A stretch of 64,000 nt of DNA from Minisyncoccia bacterium (GCA_049997855.1 JBEKSG010000003.1:4154-68153), one strand, 5' to 3'. Shown: positions 7,657 through 29,960, numbered from the stretch's first letter. Notes: a model not told the origin generated them from the letters alone. Translations and numbers: made by a program.

Positions 7657-8037
7657 TCACTTTTTGAGCAAATCGCGGATTTCGATCAGCAATTTTTCCT
7701 CCGGGCTTTGTTTGGGCGCCTCGGGCGGACCTTTAAAACGCGCCGTGAGTTTATTGACCGGTAATACGACAAAAAAATAAATAGTGACGGCTACGATAAA
7801 AAATGAAACGAGCGCGTTGATAAAATCGCCATAGAGAAACTGGCTGCCGTTAAGGGTAAAAACAAGCTTCGAAAAGTCGGGCTGCTTTACAAGCGCGGCG
7901 ATAAAGGGGGTCATAATATCTTTAACCAAGGAGGTAACCACCGCGGTAAAAGCGGCGCCGATCATAACGCCCACGGCTAAGTCGACAACGTTGCCGCGCA
8001 ATATAAAATCTCTAAATCCTTTTGTCACTTTTGTCAT
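7657..8037 (-). CDS. mscL: large-conductance mechanosensitive channel
   Basis: MscL signature (GNVVDLAVGVMIGAAF, two TM helices); the start is placed at MTKVTKGF. Confidence 0.85.
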   Translation of the reverse strand: MTKVTKGFRDFILRGNVVDLAVGVMIGAAFTAVVTSLVKDIMTPFIAALVKQPDFSKLVFTLNGSQFLYGDFINALVSFFIVAVTIYFFVVLPVNKLTARFKGPPEAPKQSPEEKLLIEIRDLLKK

Positions 8038-8106
8038 GTGCCGCCATTGTAACACTTTAAAGTGAGCGGTATAGTGCGGGCGGATAAAGTTCATGGGAGG
8101 CGCGCT

Positions 8107-8745: not shown

Positions 8746-9087
8746 CTACGCGCTCATGTCGGCGTTGATGCTGTTGACCGACGATTGGATGGCTTCTGTA
8801 GTCCATACATAGGCAAGCCATATCGTGATAAGTGTTGAGGCTGTCAAAATAATAATAGCGATGGTGCCGATAGACTTTGCCTTTGGGTCGCTCGATTTGT
8901 AGTACGTTATACCCGGCCACTTGGATACCATGATAAAAAGAATCATGGGGAGGATGGCGCTAAAAGCGTATATCCACGCTTGCGTTTCGAAAGAGGTGGA
9001 GAGCGGCGCCGACGTGAGCTTGGTACCGCAGTTGGGGCAAAAATAATAGCTCGGCAATACCGGCTGATGACAATACGGACATATCAT
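8746..9087 (-). CDS. zinc-ribbon membrane protein
   Basis: N-terminal CPYC...CPNC zinc ribbon followed by TM helices. Confidence 0.4.
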   Translation of the reverse strand: MICPYCHQPVLPSYYFCPNCGTKLTSAPLSTSFETQAWIYAFSAILPMILFIMVSKWPGITYYKSSDPKAKSIGTIAIIILTASTLITIWLAYVWTTEAIQSSVNSINADMSA

Positions 9088-9783: not shown

Positions 9784-9857
9784 GGGTGCCTACTGGGAAT
9801 CGAACCCAGATTGCGAGTTCCACAAACTCGAGTGTTGACCTTTACACCATAGGCACC
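9784..9857 (-). tRNA. tRNA-His (anticodon GTG)
   Basis: Hand-folded cloverleaf with anticodon loop TTGTGGA, T-loop GGTTCGATTCC and no encoded CCA. Confidence 0.8.
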
Positions 9858-9932
9858 ATGTGCGCGCCAAAAAAATCTAGCGCTAGGCTCTATATATATC
9901 TTTTTTAAGGTTAAAAGTCGAGACCGGTTTAT

Positions 9933-10979
9933 TTACGGGTGGAAGAAAAACGCGACTGCAATGATGGCGTACGCGGCGAGGAGTTGCACGCCCTCAAACC
10001 AGTTGCTCTCACCGTCTTCGGCAACGGCGTTGACGATAAACACCGAGAGGATGATAGCCGCAAGCTCGAACGTGTTAAACACGAGCGCCATGTGCTCGGT
10101 AAACAAGAGGCTCGCGAGCACCAAGACGGGCGCGGCAAACATAGCTATCTGGATGGCCGACCCTATAGACACTTGGAGTGCGAGATCCATGCGGTTTTTG
10201 AGCGCAACCGTTATTGCCGATACGTGCTCGGCAGCGTTGCCGATGATAGCGATAAAAATAACACCGATAAACAACTCGCTCCATCCCCACGCTGCCACTA
10301 ACGGCTCGATGGCGCCAACCAATAACTCACTCATGTATGCAACGGTGATCGTTGATACAAAAAGTATCACAATGCTTTCGGTAACGCTCCATCGTGGCTC
10401 ATATTTGGTAACCTCCTCTTCGTACAAATGTTTATGTGTGTGGAGCGTAAACCAAAGGTTGGCAACATACGCCGCTATCATAATAATGGCAACAATGATC
10501 GAAAGTTGCTCGACAATAGCCGGCGAAACGGCGTTGGACGATTGCAAAAAGATGGCCGGCATCACGAGCGCGATAATTGCAAGGAGGAGTGTCGAGCCGG
10601 CTGCCTTGGCGGCTGTTGCGTTAAACGTTTGCTTGTTCTTTCTCCACCCGCCAAAAAGGATTGCCGTGCCGAGCACCAAGAGTAAGTTGCCCACAATGGA
10701 GCCGGTGATAGACGCTTTAACCACCTCGATGAGTCCCGCGCGCAAAGCAAAGATGCCGATAATGAGCTCGGTCGCGTTGCCAAATGTTGCGTTTAAGAGT
10801 CCGCCGAGTGCGGGATTGGTGCGGCCAGCAAGTTCTTCGGTTGCCTCGCCGATATATTTGGCGAGCGGCACGATGGCAAGCGCCGAGAGAAAAAACACCG
10901 CTTGTGGCGCAACTCCCGCATAGTAGGCCAGCACGGTTACTGGCACAAACACGAGTAGACCCAAAAAAAGTTTGTCCAT
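9933..10979 (-). CDS. Ca2+/H+ antiporter (CaCA family)
   Basis: 348 aa with about 10 TM helices and two alpha-repeat signatures (GNATELIIGIFALRAG; GNAAEHVSAITVALKN). Confidence 0.85.
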   Translation of the reverse strand: MDKLFLGLLVFVPVTVLAYYAGVAPQAVFFLSALAIVPLAKYIGEATEELAGRTNPALGGLLNATFGNATELIIGIFALRAGLIEVVKASITGSIVGNLLLVLGTAILFGGWRKNKQTFNATAAKAAGSTLLLAIIALVMPAIFLQSSNAVSPAIVEQLSIIVAIIMIAAYVANLWFTLHTHKHLYEEEVTKYEPRWSVTESIVILFVSTITVAYMSELLVGAIEPLVAAWGWSELFIGVIFIAIIGNAAEHVSAITVALKNRMDLALQVSIGSAIQIAMFAAPVLVLASLLFTEHMALVFNTFELAAIILSVFIVNAVAEDGESNWFEGVQLLAAYAIIAVAFFFHP

Positions 10980-11003
10980 ATATATGCCTAGCTTATCAAG
11001 CTA

Positions 11004-11312
11004 TTGTACAATACAAAGGTCATGCAATACTTCCATCAAGCAACTTATGGTAATGCGGGCAGCGTGCACACGCGACAGCCGCAGATGGTCATGCAAGGCA
11101 ACGCCGTATACAACACGCGCTATAACCCCGCCGGCGCCTCGGCGCATCCGGTGTATATGGTGCACGGCGGTCAGATGTATCGCACCGCGTTTCATCCGGA
11201 GGGAAAAAGTGAGCATCCGCTCTATGAAATCCGCGGCGACAAAGTGCACACCACGGTGTTCCACCCCGAACACAATCCAAGCCAGCATGTGTTTGAGCTG
11301 CGTTCAAAATAA
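11004..11312 (+). CDS. small His/Pro-rich repeat protein
   Basis: 102 aa with about three 22-aa repeats of the pattern S-x-HP-x-Y...FHPE; unknown family. Confidence 0.35.
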   Translation: MYNTKVMQYFHQATYGNAGSVHTRQPQMVMQGNAVYNTRYNPAGASAHPVYMVHGGQMYRTAFHPEGKSEHPLYEIRGDKVHTTVFHPEHNPSQHVFELRSK

Positions 11313-11457
11313 AAAATTGTATTTGGTCACAAATAACTTTTTGCCGTCGCAAAAAGTTTTTGCGACCCCGACTCGCGGTTCCGCTTGCTAGCGGAACATC
11401 GCTCCGTCCCACAAAAAGCAGAAAAACCCGCTCAAGCGGGATGTTTCTGTCTTTTTG

Positions 11458-19096: not shown

Positions 19097-20473
19097 ATGA
19101 AAAGTATTTTAGAAAAAACTGCCGAGGAGCCCGCCGTACTTTTGGAGGAGAGCGTCGAGGAGGCGACCTGGCTCGAAAAAAAGTTCATCGGCAAGCGCCC
19201 CTTTAAGCGCGCCGAGGAATATTGGGAGACGCTCGGCCCCGGGCTCATCACCGGCGCCTCCGACGACGACCCCTCCGGCATCGCCACCTACTCGCAAACG
19301 GGCGCGCAATACGGATTTCAGCTTTTGTGGCTCGCCGCGTTTACGTTTCCTCTCATGGCAATCGTGCAGGAAATGTGTGCGCGCATCGGCGTTGTTACCG
19401 GCAGAGGTCTTGCCGCAAACATACGGCGCCATTACTCGCGGCCGGTGTTGTACGCAATCACTGTGCTCCTGTTTGCCGCCAACACGTTTAACATCGGCGC
19501 CGACTTGGGCGCCATGGCGCAAGGCACGCGCTTGCTTGACCCAAACCTCAGCGTTCCTCTGCTCATCATATTGTTTGCGTGCGCCAGTTTGCTGCTCCAA
19601 ATTTTTACCACCTACGCGCGCTATGCAAAATATCTCAAGTATCTTGCGCTCGTGCTGTTTGCCTACGTGTTTTCCGCATTGCTCAGCCATCTCGATTGGC
19701 ACGCAGTCGCGTTTCATTCGCTCATACCGTCTTTGAGTTTTACCAAAAGCCAAATATATCTCGTGTGCGGCATACTCGGCACCACCATCTCGCCCTATTT
19801 GTTTTTTTGGCAGACTTCGCAAGAAGTTGAGGAGGAAAATCTCCGCAACGGCAACAACCACGCCGAAAGCCCAGAGCTTCACCAACATCCGGCGAAAAAA
19901 GGTCTGCGACGCTTGAGGATAGATGTGTGGTCGGGCATGTTTTTTTCCAACGCGGCGATGTTTTTTATCATCGCCGCCTGCGCGGGGACGCTCTTTGTGC
20001 ACGGCATAACCAACATCACGACGGCTGCCGATGCGGCGGCCGCTCTGCGGCCACTCGCGGGCGACGGCGCATACTTCCTTTTTGCTATCGGCATCATCGG
20101 GACAGGCTTGCTTGCGATACCGGTCTTGGCGGGTTCAACCTCCTACGCCATTTCCGAAAGCTTTGGCTGGAAGCACGGCCTCTATCGCAAACTTAAAGAG
20201 GCGTACGCGTTTTACGGCGTGATCATCATCTCGATGCTGTGCGGTATTGTCCTCAACTTTATCGGCCTCGATCCTATCAAAGCACTTATCTATTCTGCGG
20301 TTGGGAACGGCCTGGTGGCGCCGGTGGTGCTCGTGCTTATCGTCCGCATTAGTGGCAACAAGCACATCATGGAAAACTACGTTAATAATCCGGTCATCAT
20401 CTGGCTTGGATGGTTGGCAACAGGGATCATGGCATTAGCGGGCGTGGCAACTATCGTATCGCTGTTTTTCTAG
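19097..20473 (+). CDS. mntH: NRAMP-family divalent metal (Mn2+/Fe2+) transporter
   Basis: NRAMP signatures (GPGLITGASDDDPSGIATYSQTGAQYGF) and about 11 TM helices; the start is placed at MKSILEK, downstream of a palindromic hairpin. Confidence 0.85.
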   Translation: MKSILEKTAEEPAVLLEESVEEATWLEKKFIGKRPFKRAEEYWETLGPGLITGASDDDPSGIATYSQTGAQYGFQLLWLAAFTFPLMAIVQEMCARIGVVTGRGLAANIRRHYSRPVLYAITVLLFAANTFNIGADLGAMAQGTRLLDPNLSVPLLIILFACASLLLQIFTTYARYAKYLKYLALVLFAYVFSALLSHLDWHAVAFHSLIPSLSFTKSQIYLVCGILGTTISPYLFFWQTSQEVEEENLRNGNNHAESPELHQHPAKKGLRRLRIDVWSGMFFSNAAMFFIIAACAGTLFVHGITNITTAADAAAALRPLAGDGAYFLFAIGIIGTGLLAIPVLAGSTSYAISESFGWKHGLYRKLKEAYAFYGVIIISMLCGIVLNFIGLDPIKALIYSAVGNGLVAPVVLVLIVRISGNKHIMENYVNNPVIIWLGWLATGIMALAGVATIVSLFF

Positions 20474-20503
20474 ACATCGCACGTAGATATCCGTTGTATA
20501 CTA

Positions 20504-20983
20504 TTGGTAATGCCGCAAACGGAGGGACATAACATCTCCTGGGACGTGGTGACGCACGTACACAAAGAGCGCAGCAACGATTGGTATTGGGCGCTCGGTC
20601 TTGTTGCGTTTGTGGGCGCCGCACTCTCTTTCTGGCTTGGAGACATTCTTTTTTCAATCATCATTATTATTGGTGCCGGCTCACTCGGCGTGCTTGCGGC
20701 CCGCGGGCCGCGTGAGCATGGCGTGCATATAAGCGACAAAGGCGTCGCGATAGACGGCACGTTGTACGACTATCGCTCGATCAAATCGTTTTGGGTCGAC
20801 AAAAATCCCGATCGACCGCGGCTGTATCTCATGACGCACGGCATCGTGGCGCCGCACATTACCCTGCCGCTTGAGAGCGTCTCTCAGGCCGACCAGGTGC
20901 GCTCGTTTTTGCGCAGCAAAGTTGAGGAGGTTGAACAAGAGCCGCATTTTGGCGAGCACTTCTTAGAGCTCATCGGGTTGTAA
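20504..20983 (+). CDS. hypothetical membrane protein
   Basis: 159 aa with two TM helices and a soluble C-terminal domain. Confidence 0.3.
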   Translation: MVMPQTEGHNISWDVVTHVHKERSNDWYWALGLVAFVGAALSFWLGDILFSIIIIIGAGSLGVLAARGPREHGVHISDKGVAIDGTLYDYRSIKSFWVDKNPDRPRLYLMTHGIVAPHITLPLESVSQADQVRSFLRSKVEEVEQEPHFGEHFLELIGL

Positions 20984-21025
20984 CAAGCTTTACTAAAAAC
21001 GTTTTTTAACGTATTTTAGTTGGAC

Positions 21026-21097
21026 GCTCCCGTCGTTCAATGGATAGGACGTATCCTTGCGGAGGATATGATGTAGGTTCGATTCCTACCGGGAGCA
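21026..21097 (+). tRNA. tRNA-Arg (anticodon GCG)
   Basis: Hand-folded 72 nt cloverleaf with anticodon loop TTGCGGA; its 3' end abuts the stop codon of the serine recombinase. Confidence 0.7.
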
Positions 21098-22669
21098 CAC
21101 TATAGGATTTTTGGAGTAGATTTCTTCAAAATCTGTTTGTTTCATTGTGTTTCTTACAGGTTCTAACCGTTCGTGAATACCTTGCACTTCGTGTGCTAGT
21201 GATTTCATAGGCAAGAGCGTTTTTTCCGTGTCCATAAAGAGTTCCTGGAGACTAAGCACGAGGTTCGAGCCGAGTGCGAGTAGGATGGCTTTTTGCTGGT
21301 TTTTCGGGCCTTTCTCAAACCTGTCTTTGGCTTGGGTCACAAACTCAAAGGCGCTTTGCATGTTGTCGGCCCAACTCGTGATACGCCCATCCATGTCGTT
21401 GAGTAGATCGTTGAGTCGCACTTTTTCTTTGAGGGCGGCGTCCTTCTTCTCGCGGTATTCTTCCTCGGTTAACTCTTCCCGGGCCCGCATCTCAAGATAC
21501 CGGTCTAATTTTCTTACGGTGTCATCGTATGCTTTGCGTTGCAAAAAAAGAGTAGCATCGCGTGTACGCGCTTCTTTCGTATTTTCCTGTTCGATCCATT
21601 TCATTGCCCATTGATGAAACTCATCGGGTATTTCCAGCTCATTGAGCCGTTTCAATCCCTGGTTGATGATATCTTTTTCTTTAACAGACTTCTGGCTGCA
21701 TTTCATTTGGCTACGTTTTGAACAATGGTAGTAAGTGTAGCGGTGCACGTTGCCATTTTTTTGCGTCTTGATCTTTTCCTCCGCTGTTATTGCCATGCCA
21801 CACTCTGCACAACTCATGGTGCCTGTAAAAGCAAAAGTGCGAGTTTTGGGCCGGGGCCGGCCTTTTCTACCGAGTAGCACTTGTACCTTGTCATACTCCT
21901 CCATCGTTATCATCGGCTCGTGTGCCCCTTGATACCACTCTCCACCCCACTTAAATGCCCCGTAGTAGAACGGATTGGCAAACATGTGATATACATTGCT
22001 CAGAGAGAGCTTTAACCCGCTTCTAACACGTAAACCCCACTGCTCGGTGGCCATTTCGTGTATTTGATGAGGTCTATATGCCCCGGTGAGCATCATGTCC
22101 CACATTTTGCGCACTAGGTCGTAACGCTCTGGATCTTTGTAGATATCGTTACTGCCTTTGCTTTTTATTTTACTGTTGAGGTAGCCGAGAGGAGGTTGCA
22201 CGGGGTACCAGCCCATCTCCGCTTTCTTTTTCATCCCACGGGTTACATTGACCGACAAGTCGCGCGAATACTGGTTGGCTACGCCAAGCTCCAGACTCAT
22301 CAAGAGCACGTTATCTTGGGGATAATAACTTTTATCAAAAACACGGATGTGTTGGATAACGCCTGTTTGGAGCATTTGGATTATGCCACCACCGTCGATA
22401 AAGTTGCGGGCAAGGCGGTCAAGTTTCCAACACAAGATACCCTGCGCCTCTCCCTTTGAGATACGCTCCAACATTTTGGCGAATATGGGGCGGCCGAGCG
22501 TCTTTGCTGAGCGGGACTCTTGAAGCACATCAATTATGGTCAGCCCTTCCTGGTCGGCAATTCTTTTTAGCTCATCAATTTGGGACTCGATTGAAAGAAC
22601 TTGCCGATCTTCCGACTCGGTAGATTTGCGGGCATACAAGATATATTTTATTTTCGTTTCCTTTTTCAT
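21086..22669 (-). CDS. large serine recombinase (resolvase/invertase domain + recombinase domain + zinc ribbon)
   Basis: N-terminal catalytic motif (YARKSTESEDRQ), a recombinase domain, a CAEC...YYHCSKR zinc ribbon and a C-terminal coiled coil; the start is placed at MKKETKIKY. Confidence 0.85.
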   Translation of the reverse strand: MKKETKIKYILYARKSTESEDRQVLSIESQIDELKRIADQEGLTIIDVLQESRSAKTLGRPIFAKMLERISKGEAQGILCWKLDRLARNFIDGGGIIQMLQTGVIQHIRVFDKSYYPQDNVLLMSLELGVANQYSRDLSVNVTRGMKKKAEMGWYPVQPPLGYLNSKIKSKGSNDIYKDPERYDLVRKMWDMMLTGAYRPHQIHEMATEQWGLRVRSGLKLSLSNVYHMFANPFYYGAFKWGGEWYQGAHEPMITMEEYDKVQVLLGRKGRPRPKTRTFAFTGTMSCAECGMAITAEEKIKTQKNGNVHRYTYYHCSKRSQMKCSQKSVKEKDIINQGLKRLNELEIPDEFHQWAMKWIEQENTKEARTRDATLFLQRKAYDDTVRKLDRYLEMRAREELTEEEYREKKDAALKEKVRLNDLLNDMDGRITSWADNMQSAFEFVTQAKDRFEKGPKNQQKAILLALGSNLVLSLQELFMDTEKTLLPMKSLAHEVQGIHERLEPVRNTMKQTDFEEIYSKNPIVCSR

Positions 22670-23034
22670 AGTAGTTTCGACGTCGAAACGCCGAACGGGC
22701 ACCCTTGTGTTGACCCACGCTTGCTCACGAGGTGAGTAGTTTGCGGCAAGGATGCCCGTACGGCCCACAAAAGGCACAAAAATGCCTCGTGAATACGAAC
22801 GCGGGTCAACATGGTAATTGTACTCCTCAAAGGATGAGTTGCAATTCGAGTTGCAATCCTATACCCCCTCGACTTCGGAGAAGTCGAGAAGTTAGTTTTA
22901 GTCTCCTTAACCATTCGTCTCATTAGTCTGGCCAATATGGCATCTATACTACTGGAGTATTTACCCACGACCTGCTGGAATTTTCTTCCAGTTGTACTGG
23001 AAATTTTAGCATTGTTAGTTTTAGTCATTATCAT
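22666..23034 (-). CDS. hypothetical basic protein (element-encoded)
   Basis: 122 aa ORF sharing ATGA start/stop overlap with the recombinase and overlapping the upstream gene, which suggests an operon. Confidence 0.25.
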   Translation of the reverse strand: MIMTKTNNAKISSTTGRKFQQVVGKYSSSIDAILARLMRRMVKETKTNFSTSPKSRGYRIATRIATHPLRSTITMLTRVRIHEAFLCLLWAVRASLPQTTHLVSKRGSTQGCPFGVSTSKLL

Positions 23035-23446
23035 TTTTGGGTTTTGTAAATGGATTGTTTGGATTTGGCTTTAATAGATCATCGTCGAAACTTCGATGCC
23101 AGAGAGCGTCGTCTTCATCGATATTTACGCGGTAGTAAAGACGGTAGTAGACTCTTTTGTTTTTATTATGGAATTTCTCCAGTGAACCTTTTTCTTGAAG
23201 ACGCCTTGTCATTTTAGATATGTAGTTTACGTCCTTTACGCCGAGCAAAGCGGCTATCCGTTCTCTACCAGGAAAAATTTCACTTGTGGCTTTGTACTGA
23301 AACCCGGCCAAAGTAATCCACAACGACTTTTCTTGCGGCGTTAGTGCATGGTCGACAAGAAATTTTCGTGGCACCATTACAAATTTTGCTCGGTCGGTTT
23401 TCGTGGACGCTAAAAAACTCCTATATGATGCCATTTTTCTCGACAT
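23021..23446 (-). CDS. winged-helix DNA-binding protein (possible replication/regulatory protein of element)
   Basis: 141 aa with a wHTH-like region (FVMVPRKFLVDHALTPQEKSLWITLAGF...GRERIAALLGV). Confidence 0.35.
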   Translation of the reverse strand: MSRKMASYRSFLASTKTDRAKFVMVPRKFLVDHALTPQEKSLWITLAGFQYKATSEIFPGRERIAALLGVKDVNYISKMTRRLQEKGSLEKFHNKNKRVYYRLYYRVNIDEDDALWHRSFDDDLLKPNPNNPFTKPKNDND

Positions 23447-23773
23447 GATTTTCTTTCAAGACCACTCTGTATAGATTCAGAAGATTTGCCGCGCGAAAAG
23501 CAACCTCCTCGTCAGAGAGTTCGACCCCATATATCTCTCGATATATCTCTCGATATTCTTTTAAGGCTTCTTCCGGCAACATAAATTTGCGCGGAGGGCA
23601 AAACAAAAGCCACTGAGAACGCGACGAAGCACCTCAGTGGCTTTTATTTCGTCGCGTATCAGATTTTTGTTGCTCTCCTACAAACTTGTGCTGACATCTC
23701 AGCGAACAAAGAAAAAACTGTTGTTCCCCAACGGGTTAGTGTTTCTTATTATGCTATTTGCAGCAGACATTTT

Positions 23774-24604
23774 TCAGTCTTTATCCCCTAAAGGGGTCTC
23801 GTACTCAAGTTCTTCATTGAAAGACATACCCGAACGTCGCAACTTTTCTTCTCGTAGTTCCGGCTCTGGTCTTAGCTGGAAGCGCGGTTTATATATGCCA
23901 CCTCTTGGGTCGCTCTTGTAAGAGGATATAGGGTCATCATCTAGCCCGAAAATTTCACGCAGGGCGTGGCCTAGATTCTTTTTTATTTGGTGTACTGCCG
24001 TGTTGTTCTTAAGTTTTAGTGCGTTTCGGATCCCTGTTACTGGAAGCCCGTCAGATAGCTGGAGTAAATTTGCAAACAGTCGGAGAAGTTTCCATTGAGC
24101 ATCAGGAGTTTTTGATGCTGTGGTGGCTTTGTAAAAGCCTAGCATGTCAGCATCATATTTGCCTATAAGTTTTTTTCTCACACTTATCTGGATACTCTGC
24201 GGGCCAACAAACGAAATGAGCACATCTCCCCATCTAAAATCTTTTGGGAGGCCCGGCAGGAGGGTGAATCTTTTGCCGGTTATCTTTTTCAGATAGTTTT
24301 CAATGTTAGCCAGTATTTTTTCTTTATCCCCCTTAACCTGTATGGGAGTGCCCCACATATTTTTGTGGAATGTAACACCCTTTATTGCAGGGATGTCTTT
24401 CCGTAAATTATTGATAGTCGTATACAGCCATTTATTGTCCGCATCATGATATAGATACATAGTGCGTTCGGAAATACCTATACTGAGCCACTTTCTACCG
24501 GGTACGGCGTTTGTTGGGCTTTCGTTTTTAAGGCAATACCGCAGTATCTTAACGGCAGCTATTGCTGCATCCTCGTCGCGCTTCATAGACAAAGTGTAAC
24601 GCAA
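23774..24604 (-). CDS. hypothetical protein (element-encoded)
   Basis: 276 aa AT-rich ORF with no recognisable family. Confidence 0.3.
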   Translation of the reverse strand: MRYTLSMKRDEDAAIAAVKILRYCLKNESPTNAVPGRKWLSIGISERTMYLYHDADNKWLYTTINNLRKDIPAIKGVTFHKNMWGTPIQVKGDKEKILANIENYLKKITGKRFTLLPGLPKDFRWGDVLISFVGPQSIQISVRKKLIGKYDADMLGFYKATTASKTPDAQWKLLRLFANLLQLSDGLPVTGIRNALKLKNNTAVHQIKKNLGHALREIFGLDDDPISSYKSDPRGGIYKPRFQLRPEPELREEKLRRSGMSFNEELEYETPLGDKD

Positions 24605-24850
24605 ATAGAAGGTTGCAACGACCTCCTAAGCGTTGTACTGTTTCTTTGTACAACTGAATAGTGCGAAGGACCTAACCCGTCAGTAATGGCGGCAAGGTCG
24701 AAAAGTCTCACACCTGAATACTAACCCCCGTGTTAGCGACTCAGGTGTGAGCCATACCCCGAAAGAGGCATGGGGCCGCAAGGCCTAAAGCTAGCGCGGG
24801 GCTTAGTGCGTTTTAACCCCGCCGCTGGATTATTTGATAACGCCAGTGGT

Positions 24851-25993
24851 ATGAAAAGACTCTCGATACCAATTTTTATTATCCTCAGTTTTCTAATTGT
24901 TTCTCCCGCGTTCGCTACCTCCGGTGCGTGCTCGTATCACAGCGGCGTAAACTGCACTCTCGGCCCTGCCACGAATGGTGACGCGATTTGCAATGATGGC
25001 ACCGATAGTGCGACTAGCTACTATCTAACGCAGGAGTGCCAAGTAAACATCTGCGCACCGCAATTTGCCAGTACCACCTACCAGGCTTATGTAACCTCCA
25101 ACGCGTCTTGGCGCAGCAGTTTGAACACAATAATTAGCAGTCTCATCAGCTCCCTGCAAAGCGTGGTCGCGAGTGATCAAGATAGTGAGAAAGTAGCAGT
25201 CGCGGCACTCACACAGTCTTACAACGAGGCTATACAGCAGATTCAACAAGATGAAGATGCGGCAGAAGCAGAGTCTTGTGTCTCAGGCTGTCTTGGAGGT
25301 AATGCTTCTGCTGCACAGTCCGTTCAAAGTACCTATCAAGGCTACATAGCTGAAGCCACAGCCTCGTACAATGCGGCGGTAGCACAAGCGGAAGCGGGTG
25401 ATAATGCATCAGTTGTTCAAGCTTGCATCAATCTTTGGACAAGCACCCAGACTAAAATGACCACGGCCGAGTCATATTGCACCAACACCTACGGACCAAA
25501 CAGCGCACCGCTTCCTAGCAATTTACTTTCGTGTGCTTGCGGTAGTGGGGACACCCTCCAAAACGGTGAGTGCGTTAGCTATTTAAATGCTTGCCAGGAC
25601 ATTTATGGCCAGAGCGCTTTCGCAAACAACGACGGGTCTTGCGCTTGCCCGATAGGATTTAACCCCGACGCTACAAATCACACCTGTGATTATGTAGGAC
25701 AAACTGCTACGCCATCTACTCCTGCACCGGTAGCAATGCTCACGCCTGCTCCTGCGTCCGTCTCAGTCGCTCCAGTATCTCAACCTATCAGGAACACTAC
25801 AGCCAGCATTGCAGTCAAGCCAGAGCGAACAATAGAGCCTGCGAACAACACAGCGTTTCGGGTCCCAACGACCACTGCGGCTTCAAGCGTTCCTCCAGTA
25901 ATAAGTGACAACGCACAATCCCGGGCTTCTGTTTGGCAAACAATAGGCGGCTGGCTTTTGAAGCTCAATCCGTTTTCGTGGTTCACTCACTAA
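24851..25993 (+). CDS. secreted Cys-rich protein
   Basis: Signal peptide MKRLSIPIFIILSFLIVSPAFA, many Cys-containing segments and a Pro/Thr/Ala-rich C-terminal region. Confidence 0.4.
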   Translation: MKRLSIPIFIILSFLIVSPAFATSGACSYHSGVNCTLGPATNGDAICNDGTDSATSYYLTQECQVNICAPQFASTTYQAYVTSNASWRSSLNTIISSLISSLQSVVASDQDSEKVAVAALTQSYNEAIQQIQQDEDAAEAESCVSGCLGGNASAAQSVQSTYQGYIAEATASYNAAVAQAEAGDNASVVQACINLWTSTQTKMTTAESYCTNTYGPNSAPLPSNLLSCACGSGDTLQNGECVSYLNACQDIYGQSAFANNDGSCACPIGFNPDATNHTCDYVGQTATPSTPAPVAMLTPAPASVSVAPVSQPIRNTTASIAVKPERTIEPANNTAFRVPTTTAASSVPPVISDNAQSRASVWQTIGGWLLKLNPFSWFTH

Positions 25994-26002
25994 ATCAAAA
26001 CT

Positions 26003-26332
26003 ATGGAAACAATACTACTTTCATTTATTGCAGGGGCGCTGTCGGCGGCTGGTTTAGCATTTTTGTCTTCTGACGAAGACTATGCCGCTCTGATTCTTTT
26101 TTTTGGTGTTCCTATTTTAACCGTGGTATTCTTTTTTGCCTCCTTTTTCCTGTGGAGATATGAGTATGTAATGCTAGGTGCACTCAGCGGTTCCACAACG
26201 AGTATTTCGCAAGAAGGAGACGCTCGCATGTTCGGTAAGACGGTATATGTGTTGTATAACGGTCAGTGGATCATCCCTAACGGATATACAGCGACACAAT
26301 TGGAACAAGCAGGAGTACCAAAGAAACCTTAA
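26003..26332 (+). CDS. small membrane protein
   Basis: 109 aa with two TM helices. Confidence 0.3.
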   Translation: METILLSFIAGALSAAGLAFLSSDEDYAALILFFGVPILTVVFFFASFFLWRYEYVMLGALSGSTTSISQEGDARMFGKTVYVLYNGQWIIPNGYTATQLEQAGVPKKP

Positions 26333-26337
26333 TTTCT

Positions 26338-26643
26338 ATGGGTTATATTGCTCTATTAGGCCTGTTGGTTCCCATGATTGGCTATCTTCTGTACGGCCTT
26401 TGGGGCTTTGCTATTGGTTTTTTTGCACAGTGGTTCATTATAGAATTACTATTTGAGCGCGAGGCGTATCTTGAACTTTCTCGCAAGGACAATGCCCCAA
26501 AGGTATCTTTTGCGTGGACACTTTTTGGTCCGCCTTTCTTTCAACTTATTGCTTTGTATGGGGTATATACGTACTACGGAATTTTTGCCGTACTGGCGGT
26601 GGTGGGATTGATGTATCTGACCCATCTATACGTCATGTCCTAA
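26338..26643 (+). CDS. small membrane protein
   Basis: 101 aa with three TM helices. Confidence 0.3.
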   Translation: MGYIALLGLLVPMIGYLLYGLWGFAIGFFAQWFIIELLFEREAYLELSRKDNAPKVSFAWTLFGPPFFQLIALYGVYTYYGIFAVLAVVGLMYLTHLYVMS

Positions 26644-26680
26644 GTGACAGCGAGCATTTAAAACAAGCTACAATCATCCC

Positions 26681-27451
26681 ATGAGCCGCGACTCGCTTTT
26701 AATACTCTGTGCTACAGGAATTGCGCTCATACTGATTTGCGGCAGTTACTTTCTGTGGCACCAACAAAAAGAAATACAAGCCCTTACGCTTGAAGCGGCG
26801 GTGGCGGGCACAGGGGATGCCTCTTTGGTTGCAGAATGGACTCCGATAGTTGTCCAGGTCGATTGCAGTTGGAAAGACTCTTCGCAGGATGGCGGCGGTA
26901 GCGGTATCTTATTAAAGCGTTCAAATGGTAATTTTTATATCCTCACCAACGCTCACGTCGTTACTGATAACACAGGAAAGAGGATAGCTCAGTCGTGCGA
27001 CACCGTGTTCCCGGATGCGGTAAGCACCACCTATACGGTTGATCATAAGAACATAACGACCGACCCAAATGGTGCGGATGCATCACTACTACAACTTCCT
27101 GAGGACTCATATCTCACGGGGCTAGTATCTACCAATCAAAGGAAAATCTGCACTACACCTCCCGCCATCGGGGACGACATGCTTTTGCTTGGCTACCCGG
27201 ATGCAGGCTCAAGCAACGGCATCACGGTTACCGATGGTATCGTTGCCGGTGATGAGGGATACGATTACGTTTCGTCGGCAAAGATAGACGGTGGAGATTC
27301 GGGCGGCGCGGCTATCGACGTGAAAAACGACTGTTATTTTGGGATACCTTCTTACACGATTGATGGCGACTACACAAATCTGGCTAGAGTTCTGAAATGG
27401 GGCACAATGTTTATTGATGACCCCGGCAAGCTATCTGAGGCGAGGTTGTAA
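26681..27451 (+). CDS. secreted trypsin-like (S1 family) serine protease
   Basis: Signal anchor plus a catalytic triad context (TNAHVV ... DASLLQL ... GDSGGA). Confidence 0.65.
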   Translation: MSRDSLLILCATGIALILICGSYFLWHQQKEIQALTLEAAVAGTGDASLVAEWTPIVVQVDCSWKDSSQDGGGSGILLKRSNGNFYILTNAHVVTDNTGKRIAQSCDTVFPDAVSTTYTVDHKNITTDPNGADASLLQLPEDSYLTGLVSTNQRKICTTPPAIGDDMLLLGYPDAGSSNGITVTDGIVAGDEGYDYVSSAKIDGGDSGGAAIDVKNDCYFGIPSYTIDGDYTNLARVLKWGTMFIDDPGKLSEARL

Positions 27452-27742
27452 TATGCCCCACAAGGCTACATGCGCTGTTTAAGGCTTCAAATTCTGCACG
27501 ATAGGGCTCATGTCGCTCTAAGCGCTAAGAAACACCACCACACCCTTCAGAAGAGCCATATCTGCCTTATTCTGTACTGTATCTAAGCGCGTATATGCTA
27601 TTTCTTTATAGCTCTCCCTCTGATGTGGGTGGCCAAAAACGATAGGGACGGCACAAAAAGCCTTACGCCGTTTCGACGTCGAACATAACGATATGATAAA
27701 CGATATATTGTGAACGAAATGTGATAGTATTTTTACGCGTCT

Positions 27743-28219
27743 ATGACACAGTTTTCAATTGAAATAACAGCCAATGCAGTTGCGTGGTATGGGGCAATCG
27801 TGGCCACTATCGGCATTATTATTTCCCTTCTTAATTTCGGTTTAAATTTCTGGAAGGAACGCGTGCGTATAAAAATAAAGGTAACTCAAGGATTTCATAC
27901 GCTAGGAGGTCCAGTCAGCGAGATATGTCTTTTTGTTGAGGCCATGAATGTAGGTTGGAGACCTGCCACCCTTAATACAGCTGGTTTTGAGCTGGACGAC
28001 GGAAGCAATCTTATCCTCACTCGAACGGCTGGGGAACAGCTACCTTACGAGCTGCGAGAGGGTAAGTCCCACATGAGTTATGTTGAGAAAGAGAAAATAG
28101 TCGAAACTCTGAAGGAGTCCGGAAGAAAATTAACGTACGCATGGTATACGACTGCAACTGGGAAGATATATAAAACAAGGAAAAATGTTGCAGCGATTAT
28201 GCTGAAAAGCAAAAATTAG
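27743..28219 (+). CDS. hypothetical membrane-anchored protein
   Basis: 158 aa with an N-terminal TM helix. Confidence 0.3.
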   Translation: MTQFSIEITANAVAWYGAIVATIGIIISLLNFGLNFWKERVRIKIKVTQGFHTLGGPVSEICLFVEAMNVGWRPATLNTAGFELDDGSNLILTRTAGEQLPYELREGKSHMSYVEKEKIVETLKESGRKLTYAWYTTATGKIYKTRKNVAAIMLKSKN

Positions 28220-28926
28220 GAGAGGGGTGGAAATTCAAATTTATATAGATAGGAAAATATTTCGGTCTGATTGCCCTTTTTGTGTAGATCTAGGAGAAGT
28301 GCCCCGGGTATTTGCCCTTTGTTTTCAAGCACCAATGCCTTGAGGGAAAAATCACAGCCTATTTTTGGCGTTCCCATGCTGAAAAGGGCCTGCCAACCAT
28401 CGCCCTTGTTGGCAAGCGTTGCAGTCATCCAAGCCTCCATAATGGGCAACCCTTGTTTCTGAATCTCGGCATACTCCGCGTCCATATCTACGGCGATATC
28501 CTTCTTGGCATGGACCAAAAGAATAAAATGAAATGGGTAAGCCTTCCCCGCGAGTTTGTTTTTGACACGTTCGCTCAGAGTCTCTTTGCTGTGAGCCTCC
28601 CAATCGGTAACTTCGATAAAATATTGCACCGTCTGCTGGCCATCGGGGATATCAGGGTGCGGTTGGAATCGGTAAGCATAGACGTCCGGCACTTCATCGT
28701 AAGAAGGTGCGAGCCAGTACTTTTCGTTGCCCACCACTAGTTTACTTCGGCCCAATAGAAAAATTGCGGTCGCGTGCATTTCCCGCGCCTTCTGAAAACG
28801 TCTATCTGTCAGTACTAAGTCTTTTCCGTAGAACCTCACTGCTCCCTCAAAGCGCTCGATTACAACGTAAGGGGTAAGCAGTGGACTTTCGGGGAAAAGC
28901 AGTTTTTCAAATTTAGTTGCAGCCAT
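28216..28926 (-). CDS. hypothetical protein
   Basis: About 236 aa, start placed at MAATKFEK; unknown family. Confidence 0.3.
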   Translation of the reverse strand: MAATKFEKLLFPESPLLTPYVVIERFEGAVRFYGKDLVLTDRRFQKAREMHATAIFLLGRSKLVVGNEKYWLAPSYDEVPDVYAYRFQPHPDIPDGQQTVQYFIEVTDWEAHSKETLSERVKNKLAGKAYPFHFILLVHAKKDIAVDMDAEYAEIQKQGLPIMEAWMTATLANKGDGWQALFSMGTPKIGCDFSLKALVLENKGQIPGALLLDLHKKGNQTEIFSYLYKFEFPPLS

Positions 28927-28927
28927 A

Positions 28928-29461
28928 TTACCTGGTGCTATGAACACGGAAACCGCACGCACGGCAAATACCGTTGGTGTGCGAATAGTTGACGAAATAT
29001 TCAAATTTCTCTGCCTTACATACCGGACACATAACGCGCCCGCTCTTTTTTCCGGATTCTTCAATAGTTTTAAACACGCTCCGAACATTGAGCACGTACC
29101 CATTTATCTCATCCCTGTTGCCGAGATAACCTTTCACCCACAGATCGGTCGTGATCCGTCCGGCAGAAGTTTCTTTATACAAAATTTTTCCTTCATTCAG
29201 AAGTTTTTCCCAATACTGCCGTGAGTTACCATATGTTGCGGCAATATCTCGAGAGGACATCAGACGCGCATTAAAGGGAATATAGCCCTGGTGCTCCATG
29301 TGTTTGTATATCTCCTTCAGGCCTTCGGCAAGCAACGCCTCCTTTTGCTTTTTAGTGAGACCTCCTTCATAGCTCAGATCCATGCTCAACGTGCCTCCGC
29401 TGCTTGACGTGGCACTCCAATAAAATTTCAGTGGCGGTTCTTTCATGCGCCCAGTATACAC
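28928..29461 (-). CDS. putative HTH regulator with C-terminal zinc ribbon
   Basis: HTH-like segment (SSRDIAATYGNSRQYW) and C-terminal CPVC...CRAC. Confidence 0.35.
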   Translation of the reverse strand: MYTGRMKEPPLKFYWSATSSSGGTLSMDLSYEGGLTKKQKEALLAEGLKEIYKHMEHQGYIPFNARLMSSRDIAATYGNSRQYWEKLLNEGKILYKETSAGRITTDLWVKGYLGNRDEINGYVLNVRSVFKTIEESGKKSGRVMCPVCKAEKFEYFVNYSHTNGICRACGFRVHSTR

Positions 29462-29888
29462 GAAGTGGTTGCTTTTGGCAACCTGTTCATTTAGTTAACT
29501 AAAGACGCCCTGTGGCCCGGATATCGCGACTGGCATCTCACAGTCCGACATTATGTGAACCCCGGAGATGGTGGGGTACTGCACCTGGGCCGCTTATCTC
29601 AAAAACTCCTTATTTTACTTGCCAACTTTTAACAACCGCGACTAAAGACGGGGTCGGTGACAGCATAAAAGCAGTTCTAACGTCGTATAATAGGGAGCAC
29701 TAGGTTGAAAAAGCAAACTGCTTTGCTTTTTCATACACTTGTGCTGGGCGGAACGCTGCCCTGCAATTGCAGGGCCGTGAGCCGGGGTCGCGAGTAAATT
29801 TTGCGACGGCAACATTTAATTTGTGACCACAGACACAAAGCGAGCAAGGTCGACTTATGGCCACAAGATGTGTACAGTTGAGTTGATC

Positions 29889-29960
29889 GCTCTCGTAGTT
29901 TAATGGATAAAATACCTCCCTCCGAAGGAGGCGATGCAGGTTCGATTCCCGCCGGGAGCA
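29889..29960 (+). tRNA. tRNA-Arg (anticodon CCG)
   Basis: Hand-folded 72 nt cloverleaf with anticodon loop CTCCGAA. Confidence 0.8.

Follow-up and report, generated by a model that had tools for sequence, protein, structure and literature searches.

A probable 8.6-kb serine-integrase element in the 3′ end of a tRNA-Arg gene of a Minisyncoccia bacterium, and the tRNA-targeting recombinase family to which it belongs

The 64,000-nt stretch of a Minisyncoccia bacterium analyzed here (GCA_049997855.1 JBEKSG010000003.1:4154-68153; hereafter the window, to whose full length all coordinates refer) carries two tRNA-Arg genes that lie 8.8 kb apart and enclose a gene for a large serine recombinase together with a series of smaller genes. 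The sequence comparisons set out below make it very probable that an 8.6-kb serine-integrase element, with boundaries at 21099 and 29700, occupies the 3′ end of the first of these genes, tRNA-Arg(GCG). The flanking genes are nearest to metagenome-assembled genomes assigned to 'Adlerbacteria'/Paceibacteria, and a protein identical to the recombinase is annotated at NCBI as belonging to a Minisyncoccia metagenome-assembled genome. tRNA genes were called with ARAGORN and Rfam, and the features that define the element, its attachment (att) sites and its surroundings are as follows.

21026-21097/8, + strand: host tRNA-Arg(GCG), the integration target (attB left arm and core), called by ARAGORN and Rfam
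21086-22669, − strand: large serine recombinase, 527 aa, as truncated at the C terminus by integration (last residues ...NPIVCSR*)
21091-21098: attL core GGGAGCAC, tRNA positions 67-73 plus one trailer base
21099-29700, 8,602 bp: the element, delimited by the cores, the displaced recombinase tail and the end of homology to empty sites
29610-29699, − strand: displaced recombinase 3′ end, encoding CSLLYDVRTAFMLSPTPSLVAVVKSWQVK*; the P arm of attP, with the T-loop-like GTTAGAAC
29693-29700: attR core GGGAGCAC, the right end of the element
29701-29888, + strand: host spacer outside the element, 188 bp before tRNA-Arg(CCG)
29707-29732: hairpin with an 11-bp stem, in the host spacer
29889-29960/1, + strand: host tRNA-Arg(CCG), which relatives have in tandem with tRNA-Arg(GCG); not an att site; called by ARAGORN and Rfam
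attB (the unintegrated host site): …CCTACCGGGAGCACTAGGTTGAAAAAGC…, junction GGTTCGATTCCTACCGGGAGCACTAGGTTGAAAAAGCAAACTGC
attP (the element ends joined): …CGTCGTATAATAGGGAGCACACTATAGGATT…, junction AACGTCGTATAATAGGGAGCACACTATAGGATTTTTGGAG

The locus can be compared with 80 syntenic loci, obtained by scanning species-representative genomes with the neighboring Mur ligase as the query. At least seven genomes (L012, L016, L017, L020, L022, L024, and L028) have tRNA-Arg(GCG) and tRNA-Arg(CCG) in tandem, only 8-32 nt apart, and the nearest relative, L008 (86% identity in MurE), is colinear with the window over 19364-21099, after which the alignment restarts at 29889. The tRNA-Arg(GCG) sequence of the window is the same as in L008, L012, and L024, so the gene is still intact after integration. 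The gene directly upstream of this tRNA is kept beside it in relatives, unlike the genes of the element, for which the 80 loci hold no homologue save a weak protease match in L013. Composition sets the element apart as well: its GC content (46.5%) is the lowest among the 277 segments of this length in the 64 kb (8.6 kb each; mean, 50.0%; sd, 1.4%), and GC at third codon positions (GC3) is 0.39-0.54 in its genes versus 0.48-0.68 in neighboring host genes. An initial annotation, made from the sequence alone, had placed both tRNA genes where ARAGORN and Rfam now call them and had read the DNA between them as an integrative element, a reading that the tandem tRNA genes and the colinearity of L008 bear out. 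The two observations it had named as fatal to this idea were an identical gene order in all relatives with no junction repeats and a composition resembling that of the flanks; the 80-locus comparison and the GC and GC3 values reveal neither.

The left end of the element lies where homology to the empty sites stops, at 21099: after the tRNA, the empty sites read ...GGGAGCA-CAAA..., versus ...GGGAGCA-CA followed by CTATAGG in the window. The recombinase gene does not end 5-10 nt from the tRNA, as had been thought, but shares 12 nt with the 3′ end of the latter; the TAG that stops it (21086-21088) falls inside the T-stem, and the end of the integrated open reading frame (ORF), ...N-P-I-V-C-S-R-stop, is the translation of the antisense acceptor strand. 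The ORF is cut after ...NPIVCS, and its other 27 codons are found at the far end of the element, where a minus-strand reading from 29699 yields CSLLYDVRTAFMLSPTPSLVAVVKSWQVK*, in frame with ...NPIVCS once the ends are joined (...CGTCGTATAATA-GGGAGCAC-ACTATAGGATT...). Circularized in silico, the element has an uninterrupted 553-aa ORF (...SKNPIVCSLLYDVRTAF...WQVK*) as opposed to 527 aa in the integrated form, and the tail restored in this way is homologous to the tails of family members located away from tRNAs. A hidden Markov model (HMM) built from 29 such tails, with the window's own sequence left out, gave one significant match in a six-frame search of the whole window, the displaced fragment (E = 1.2e-5; the next match, 0.3), whose reading frame is open throughout and has its stop codon where the homologue P0002 has its own. 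The two copies of GGGAGCAC are identical (8/8) and are spaced exactly 8,602 bp apart; in the left copy, tRNA positions 67-73 take in all but one of the seven acceptor-strand nucleotides on the 3′ side and then the discriminator.

A plain k-mer search for att repeats, comparing the tRNA junction with the region, matched only the 3′ end of tRNA-Arg(CCG), and in other loci it returned mostly chance 7-9-mers; because the cores are too short for such a search, the tail HMM was used instead. The same tRNA match figures in the extent first proposed for the element, which would span the interval from tRNA-Arg(GCG) to tRNA-Arg(CCG), with the similar tRNA 3′ ends, GGTTCGATTCC..CCGGGAGCACA, serving as attL and attR. 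The shared segment is real, matching at 23/25 nt, and is the longest repeat flanking the region, but it is not a junction repeat, since the same isoacceptor similarity is present in tandem, insert-free relatives. The displaced integrase tail and the 8-bp core put the right end at 29693-29700, so that the element stops 188 bp before tRNA-Arg(CCG), and those 188 bp hold a host RNA motif that is tRNA-adjacent in many relatives. What had been described as some 420-440 nt of noncoding DNA in front of this tRNA contains the recombinase 3′ end, the attR core, the hairpin, and the host motif. We therefore regard a tRNA-to-tRNA span as highly improbable. That tRNA-Arg(CCG) might itself be an element-borne or hybrid tRNA was considered separately and ruled out by its tandem arrangement with tRNA-Arg(GCG) in relatives. 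One could also suppose that the block is ancestral host DNA which relatives have lost, and that the recombinase is an unrelated resolvase or invertase; L008 is the single close relative, and the distant ones could have lost the block. Such a history would, however, require base-precise loss at the tRNA 3′ end in at least eight lineages and would leave unexplained the split ORF, the 8-bp repeat, the foreign composition, and the recurrence of the same design at 12 other tRNA species; we give it next to no credence.

The start of the recombinase at MKKETK (22669), which gives the 527-aa product, was fixed by alignment with homologues. The protein matches the Pfam families Resolvase (PF00239, 2.2e-20, residues 46-189 of the long ORF), Recombinase (PF07508, 9.6e-9), and Zn_ribbon_recom (PF13408, 3.1e-8) as well as the integrase family phrog_95 of PHROG (1.5e-65), confirming the large three-domain serine recombinase that had been recognized at the tRNA-proximal end, and no ORF of the element contains a tyrosine recombinase (Phage_integrase) domain in Pfam and PHROG scans. 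The catalytic motif YARKST is present and is nearly invariant in 28 homologues, the zinc-ribbon region has four Cys residues conserved in the homologue alignment, and a long, charged, helical-looking stretch (approximately residues 380-470) aligns with the C-terminal region of SprA. By sequence, the nearest solved structures are SPbeta SprA (PDB 9DXH) and the A118/LI integrase of a Listeria phage (PDB 4KIS). Nothing in the phage and plasmid databases exceeds 32% identity to the integrase, the value of the best plasmid match; the nearest phage integrase is phi105 Int (27.8%), and a scan of IMG/VR returned a single distant relative (25%).

Homologues that are 60-64% identical to the window integrase likewise run into a convergent tRNA gene, namely tRNA-Ile(tat), tRNA-Lys(ctt), or tRNA-Lys(ttt). 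We assembled the family as 85 loci, 80 of them from a profile-based metagenome scan. An alignment of 28 homologues distinguishes two types of C terminus after a conserved ...IY(S/A)xxPxV: short tails (LDSNQRP, LESNQRP, and QGSNLRP) that are the antisense translation of a tRNA T-arm, and a conserved tail of 20-35 aa (...L(Y/D)xxRT(V/W/C)(F/I)...P.(Y/F)...), to which the displaced tail of the window belongs. A convergent tRNA call overlaps the 3′ end of the ORF in 42/85 loci and involves 12 anticodons (Asn-gtt in 16, His-gtg in 9, and Trp-cca in 4, plus Ser, Gln, Tyr, Ile, and Lys); a further 9/85 have a tRNA-antisense tail with no tRNA call, some of them with group I introns or contig ends, 23/85 have an intact tail, 5/85 are partial, and 6/85 are of other kinds. 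Targeting of tRNAs is thus the rule in this recombinase family, and the initial annotation's remark that a serine element at a tRNA is unusual holds for the literature searched, not for the family. Group I introns (RF00028) lie within or beside the tRNA that abuts the integrase in L113 (11624-11894) and L094 (12480-12724), and because of such introns some target tRNAs go uncalled. In L093, L115, L126, and L127, the integrase abuts only the 3′ half of a tRNA, with divergence at the anticodon loop, a pattern suggestive of tandem arrays or of insertion into fragments of tRNAs that other elements had left behind.

The split-gene arrangement recurs in other members of the family. In L002, a 10-bp repeat, TGTCCGCCCT, taken from the tRNA-Ile acceptor strand, bounds a 6.7-kb element whose far end encodes LSALLYDARTIFIE...; displaced tails accompany repeats of 7 bp in L111, 6 bp in L118, and 7 bp in L157; and L007 and L006 share a 9-bp core and a displaced tail, the attL side being taken from L006, which has the same integrase, as the recombinase-side junction of L007 hits a contig end. 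In copies with an intact tail, the core position holds 7-11 nt equal to the acceptor strand of one tRNA, as in the pairs L098/tRNA-Asn copies, L133/tRNA-His, L121/tRNA-Trp, and L088/tRNA-Ile. L088, which is plasmid-like, also has its tail-coding segment duplicated approximately 800 bp downstream (~7984-8079 and ~8794-8880). L170, from Bradyrhizobium sp. JR18.2/RT3a (JBEPQX010000017), shows that the family is present in a cultured alphaproteobacterium: its integrase is 61% identical to that of the window and has an intact tail, no tRNA is nearby, and its low-GC surroundings (50-58%) abound in defense genes, with type I restriction-modification, SAVED-HNH, and ubiquitin-like Bub genes and IS66.

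The two types of C terminus differ in the placement of one short motif. Relative to the conserved Tyr codon, the start of T[N]GAA[C/A] falls at +36 in 28/31 tRNA-joined copies, where the motif is the antisense T-loop, and at +41 in 16/19 intact-tail copies, where the motif codes for an invariant Val-Arg-Thr. The commonest sequence encoding this tripeptide, GTTCGAACC, is used in 10/23 and has fixed third codon positions, which points to a constraint at the DNA level. In the model published for the A118/LI integrase (PMC3783163), the zinc-ribbon motif of attB lies 5 bp further inward than that of attP, and when the motif is set at the published positions (attP 16-24 and attB 11-19), the same core point is obtained as the center from both arms. 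Natural attP/attL pairs diverge at offsets 25-28 and attL/attR cores begin at 18-21, so strand exchange is bracketed to ~5 bp, at offsets 21-25. On this evidence we lean, by a modest degree, toward a model in which the T-loop is the zinc-ribbon motif of attB and is mimicked in attP: the zinc-ribbon domain would read the TTCGAA-like T-loop in the tRNA arm of attB and, 5 bp further out in attP, a mimic, GTT[C/A]GAACC, formed by the Val-Arg-Thr codons. Outside the att half-site, it is the protein sequence of the tail that is conserved, e.g., WIMxNL(E/D)xFxxPSF with differing codons, and integration would thus remove a peptide that is probably functional.

The remaining genes and features of the element form a recombinase-side operon and, across a divergent intergenic region, a group of cargo genes.

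22666-23034, − strand: hypothetical basic ORF, 122 aa, overlapping the recombinase start by 4 nt
23021-23446, − strand: HTH_36 winged-helix protein, 141 aa (Pfam), with a weak match to the phage replication-initiator family phrog_270
23421-23606, − strand: p61, a small helical protein, consensus MLPxEAxKEFKDIY...RRANNLLxLYRAVL
23774-24604, − strand: hypothetical protein p276, 276 aa, first gene of the recombinase-side operon, no family match
24669-24786, + strand: LOOT RNA (Rfam RF03000), in the divergent intergenic region and antiparallel to the recombinase
24851-25993, + strand: Cys-rich protein with a signal-peptide-like N terminus and a Pro/Thr/Ala-rich C-terminal region, no family match
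26003-26332, + strand: small predicted membrane protein, 109 aa, no family match
26338-26643, + strand: small predicted membrane protein, 101 aa, no family match
26681-27451, + strand: membrane-anchored trypsin-like serine protease (Trypsin_2, 1.1e-12; GDSGG motif)
27743-28219, + strand: p158, hypothetical, with an N-terminal transmembrane segment
28216-28926, − strand: p236, hypothetical
28928-29446, − strand: p172, hypothetical, with a C-terminal CxxC...CxxC zinc ribbon
29481-29453, − strand: promoter-like site

Parts of this inventory recur in related elements. An all-against-all comparison of ten delimited elements left only the recombinase and p61 common to 10/10, and p61 is accordingly our leading candidate for the role of directionality factor or regulator. 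LOOT RNA, which scores 68.5 bits in the window (gathering threshold, 46.4) over the full length of the model (1-121), occupies the same place and orientation in L002 (7386-7505), L111 (6291-6409), L101 (7355-7476), and L141 (6899-7030), and the genes downstream of it differ among elements. The HTH_36 gene is also found upstream of the recombinase in L003, L006, L007, and L125 and, together with p276, constitutes a putative regulation/replication module. The 122-aa basic ORF has no homologue in related elements and is uncertain as a real gene. A repeat, GTTTCGACGTCGAA, occurs in two exact copies, just upstream of the integrase start (22674-22687) and in the intergenic DNA before p158 (27670-27683); each copy together with an adjacent base makes a perfect 14-bp palindrome, TTTCGACGTCGAAA, which may be an operator. 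Repeat and tandem-repeat scans found no iterons.

The cargo of the window is assignable only as secreted or surface proteins and a protease. The Cys-rich secreted protein (16 Cys after the signal-peptide-like N terminus, counted from M28 in an ORF open from 24770), the trypsin-like protease, and the winged-helix protein had all been proposed before and are upheld here; PADLOC gave generic protease matches only. The size of the element (8.6 kb) and the row of small membrane proteins with a secreted protein resemble the structural modules of inoviruses, and the phrog_95 'integrase' match would likewise suit a small prophage or phage satellite whose membrane and Cys-rich proteins are virion or morphogenesis parts. 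Inoviruses have reportedly been found in the Candidate Phyla Radiation, some of them with serine recombinases. Nevertheless, no ORF of the element matches a capsid, terminase, portal, Zot-like pI ATPase, or rolling-circle Rep protein in PHROG or Pfam, and the distant phage and IMG/VR relatives of the integrase speak against a phage origin too. Related elements carry other things than virion genes: cyclic oligonucleotide-based antiphage signaling systems (CBASS) in L007 and L125, an AAA_25 protein in L002, and, in the intact-tail form L088, a TraG/DUF87-like protein with toxin-antitoxin pairs. A prophage is therefore improbable. In the same Pfam and PHROG scans, the window element had no relaxase, coupling protein, or type IV secretion genes.

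We propose that the element entered by serine-integrase recombination between attP, in the 3′ end of its own integrase gene, and attB, in the 3′ end of tRNA-Arg(GCG). Because the repeat GGGAGCAC is the 3′ acceptor strand of the tRNA, the tRNA is regenerated unchanged. Strand exchange would take place at a 2-bp crossover within the core, at approximately tRNA positions 70-72. Since the T-loop of any tRNA is set at a constant distance from the 3′ end, a change of core alone would suffice for a move between tRNA species. Excision would need the integrase and a directionality factor, for which p61 would be the best candidate. It may be asked whether the resident element can still move or whether, integration being real, it is now an immobile fossil with an inactive, truncated integrase, a strain-specific island. 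The integrated enzyme lacks a tail that is conserved as protein far past the att half-site, the excised form has not been observed, there is a precedent in Mx8 IntX, whose activity was lower after a C-terminal swap (PMC4701971), and the tRNA-Arg interval is a variable hot spot that holds unrelated genes in L010, L011, and L013. Against these points stand the 8/8 identity of the cores, the uninterrupted tail ORF with its stop as in P0002, the full-length integrase, p61, and HTH genes, and a strong GC difference that suggests a recent arrival; on balance, a fossil seems unlikely.

Extended to the family, our reading of the window element becomes more tentative. It is possible, though we stop short of favoring it, that a large uncharacterized clade uses the tRNA as a modular landing pad, (i) recognizing the T-loop with the aid of a mimic shifted by 5 bp; (ii) reaching at least 13 anticodons through the acceptor-strand core; (iii) clipping a C-terminal peptide in what could be a switch between integration-competent and resident forms; and (iv) relying on p61 and LOOT RNA as dedicated maintenance or directionality parts. 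An integrative element driven by a large serine recombinase is already known in kind; what would be new at the level of the family is tRNA targeting as the rule, the position of attP inside the gene, and T-loop mimicry with the canonical 5-bp offset. The literature searched contains no account of a clade of serine integrases dedicated to tRNA 3′ ends and none of an attP that mimics the T-loop or of such elements carrying LOOT RNA, catalogue-level mentions being possible, and Durrant et al. (2022) do not mention tRNA.

Several observations weigh against this reading in one or another of its parts. The dyad symmetry of attP is weak, with an inner TCC/GGA centered at 22.5 and an outer motif at 23.5; one candidate for the crossover dinucleotide in the window is a palindromic GC, and dyad analysis gives no unique center; and the B′ arm of the host site has no well-placed T-loop-like motif. 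Several of the intact-tail copies, which we assumed to be unintegrated attP forms, sit on long contigs (57 kb for L125 and 193 kb for Bradyrhizobium). The role of p61 is a guess from co-occurrence, and genes for replication, transfer, and packaging were not confidently identified in the window element. The case is made at the level of sequence.

Each component of the proposed mechanism has parallels elsewhere. The A118/LI integrase (PDB 4KIS) and SprA (PDB 9DXH) have the same domain order, resolvase catalytic domain, recombinase domain, and zinc ribbon, at an identity to the window integrase of ~25-28% over part of the protein, and the A118/LI model, in which a distal 8-9-bp motif is displaced outward by 5 bp in attP compared to attB, matches the family described here (PMC3783163); however, those enzymes have protein-coding targets and an attP outside int, as opposed to a tRNA 3′ end, an attP within the int ORF, and a T-loop as the distal motif. 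An att site inside the integrase gene is known from two other settings. In the myxophage Mx8, attP lies in the gene for IntP, and integration into tRNA-Asp gives a short new C terminus (PMC4701971); the location of attP and the C-terminal exchange are shared with the window element, but IntP is a tyrosine recombinase, of unrelated family and chemistry. The Streptococcus integrative and conjugative elements (ICEs) that target rumA encode a serine integrase with an att site in its own gene, swap 3′ ends, and have repeats of 2-21 bp (PMC4701971). They share with the window element the exchange of the integrase 3′ end and a C terminus that differs between the excised and integrated forms; they differ in having a protein-coding target, in being large conjugative elements, and in lacking T-loop logic and a multi-tRNA range. 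Classical tRNA islands and prophages (Williams 2002) likewise target the tRNA 3′ end, leave the tRNA intact, and have the integrase gene adjacent to it, but they use tyrosine integrases and repeats of tens of bp, whereas here there is serine half-site geometry and a 6-10-bp acceptor-strand repeat. Among the tycheposons of Prochlorococcus, 27/937 are described as encoding a large serine recombinase (bioRxiv 10.1101/2020.12.28.424599). Compared by description only, tycheposons share the small, cargo-bearing, tRNA-adjacent integrative form in a streamlined genome; they belong to another host phylum and mostly use tyrosine recombinases, and the portion of their text searched describes no split-gene/T-loop mechanism.

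Serine integrases rank among the major tools of genome engineering, and what limits them most is that their target specificity is fixed. If the proposed model is true, the combination of a constant half-site, the T-loop that the tRNAs of all organisms share, with a 6-10-bp core change would be a natural example of modular retargeting. A single crystal structure (PMC3783163) was the basis of the 5-bp zinc-ribbon shift model, to which dozens of natural attP/attL pairs lend independent, comparative support. The window also documents, in a reduced Patescibacteria genome, a mobile element that appears intact and whose ends are exact; LOOT, an orphan RNA, gains a genomic home in elements of this kind, and such elements are seen to carry defense systems (CBASS) and secreted or surface proteins. 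The 61%-identical homologue in cultured Bradyrhizobium isolates could provide a tractable system.

Among relatives, the stretch separating the two tRNA-Arg genes is a variation hot spot. Other inserts occupy it in L010 (4481-8952), L011 (1605-9009), and L013 (2239-4956), encoding large glycine-rich proteins, an Lnt-like protein, and a Trypsin_2 protein, and none includes a recombinase; L010 and L011 also have tRNA-Arg(ccg) inverted relative to tRNA-Arg(gcg). A second variable interval between tRNAs is the gap between tRNA-Leu(gag) and tRNA-His (window 9857-11456), which measures 1.6 kb here versus 18 nt in L024 and contains a copy of the host RNA motif and a gene for a 348-aa membrane protein resembling a cation antiporter. 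In the T-stem of tRNA-Arg(CCG) (GCAGG/CCCGC), an A·C mismatch replaces the full pairing (CCTGC or equivalent) seen in all relatives examined and could be a point mutation or a sequencing error. The host RNA motif of the spacer is a structured RNA of ~100 nt, present in the window at 29739-29835 (+) and 11318-11417 (−) and in L008 at 2256-2353, with ~20 further copies in Paceibacteria loci, several per genome. It lies 7-140 nt (typically ~40) downstream of tRNA genes, in the same orientation, and has no match in Rfam; in the structure that RNAalifold derives from 17 copies, compensatory changes occur at 24 of the 31 pairs, and GAGxCGGGGTCG and TGAC are invariant. A 57-bp match between the DNA in front of tRNA-Arg(CCG) and the region downstream of this tRNA in L008, at one point considered a rearrangement, is in reality this multicopy motif. 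Finally, between 49000 and 51000 the GC content of the window falls to 0.35-0.43, well under its mean, and this stretch may be another foreign segment.

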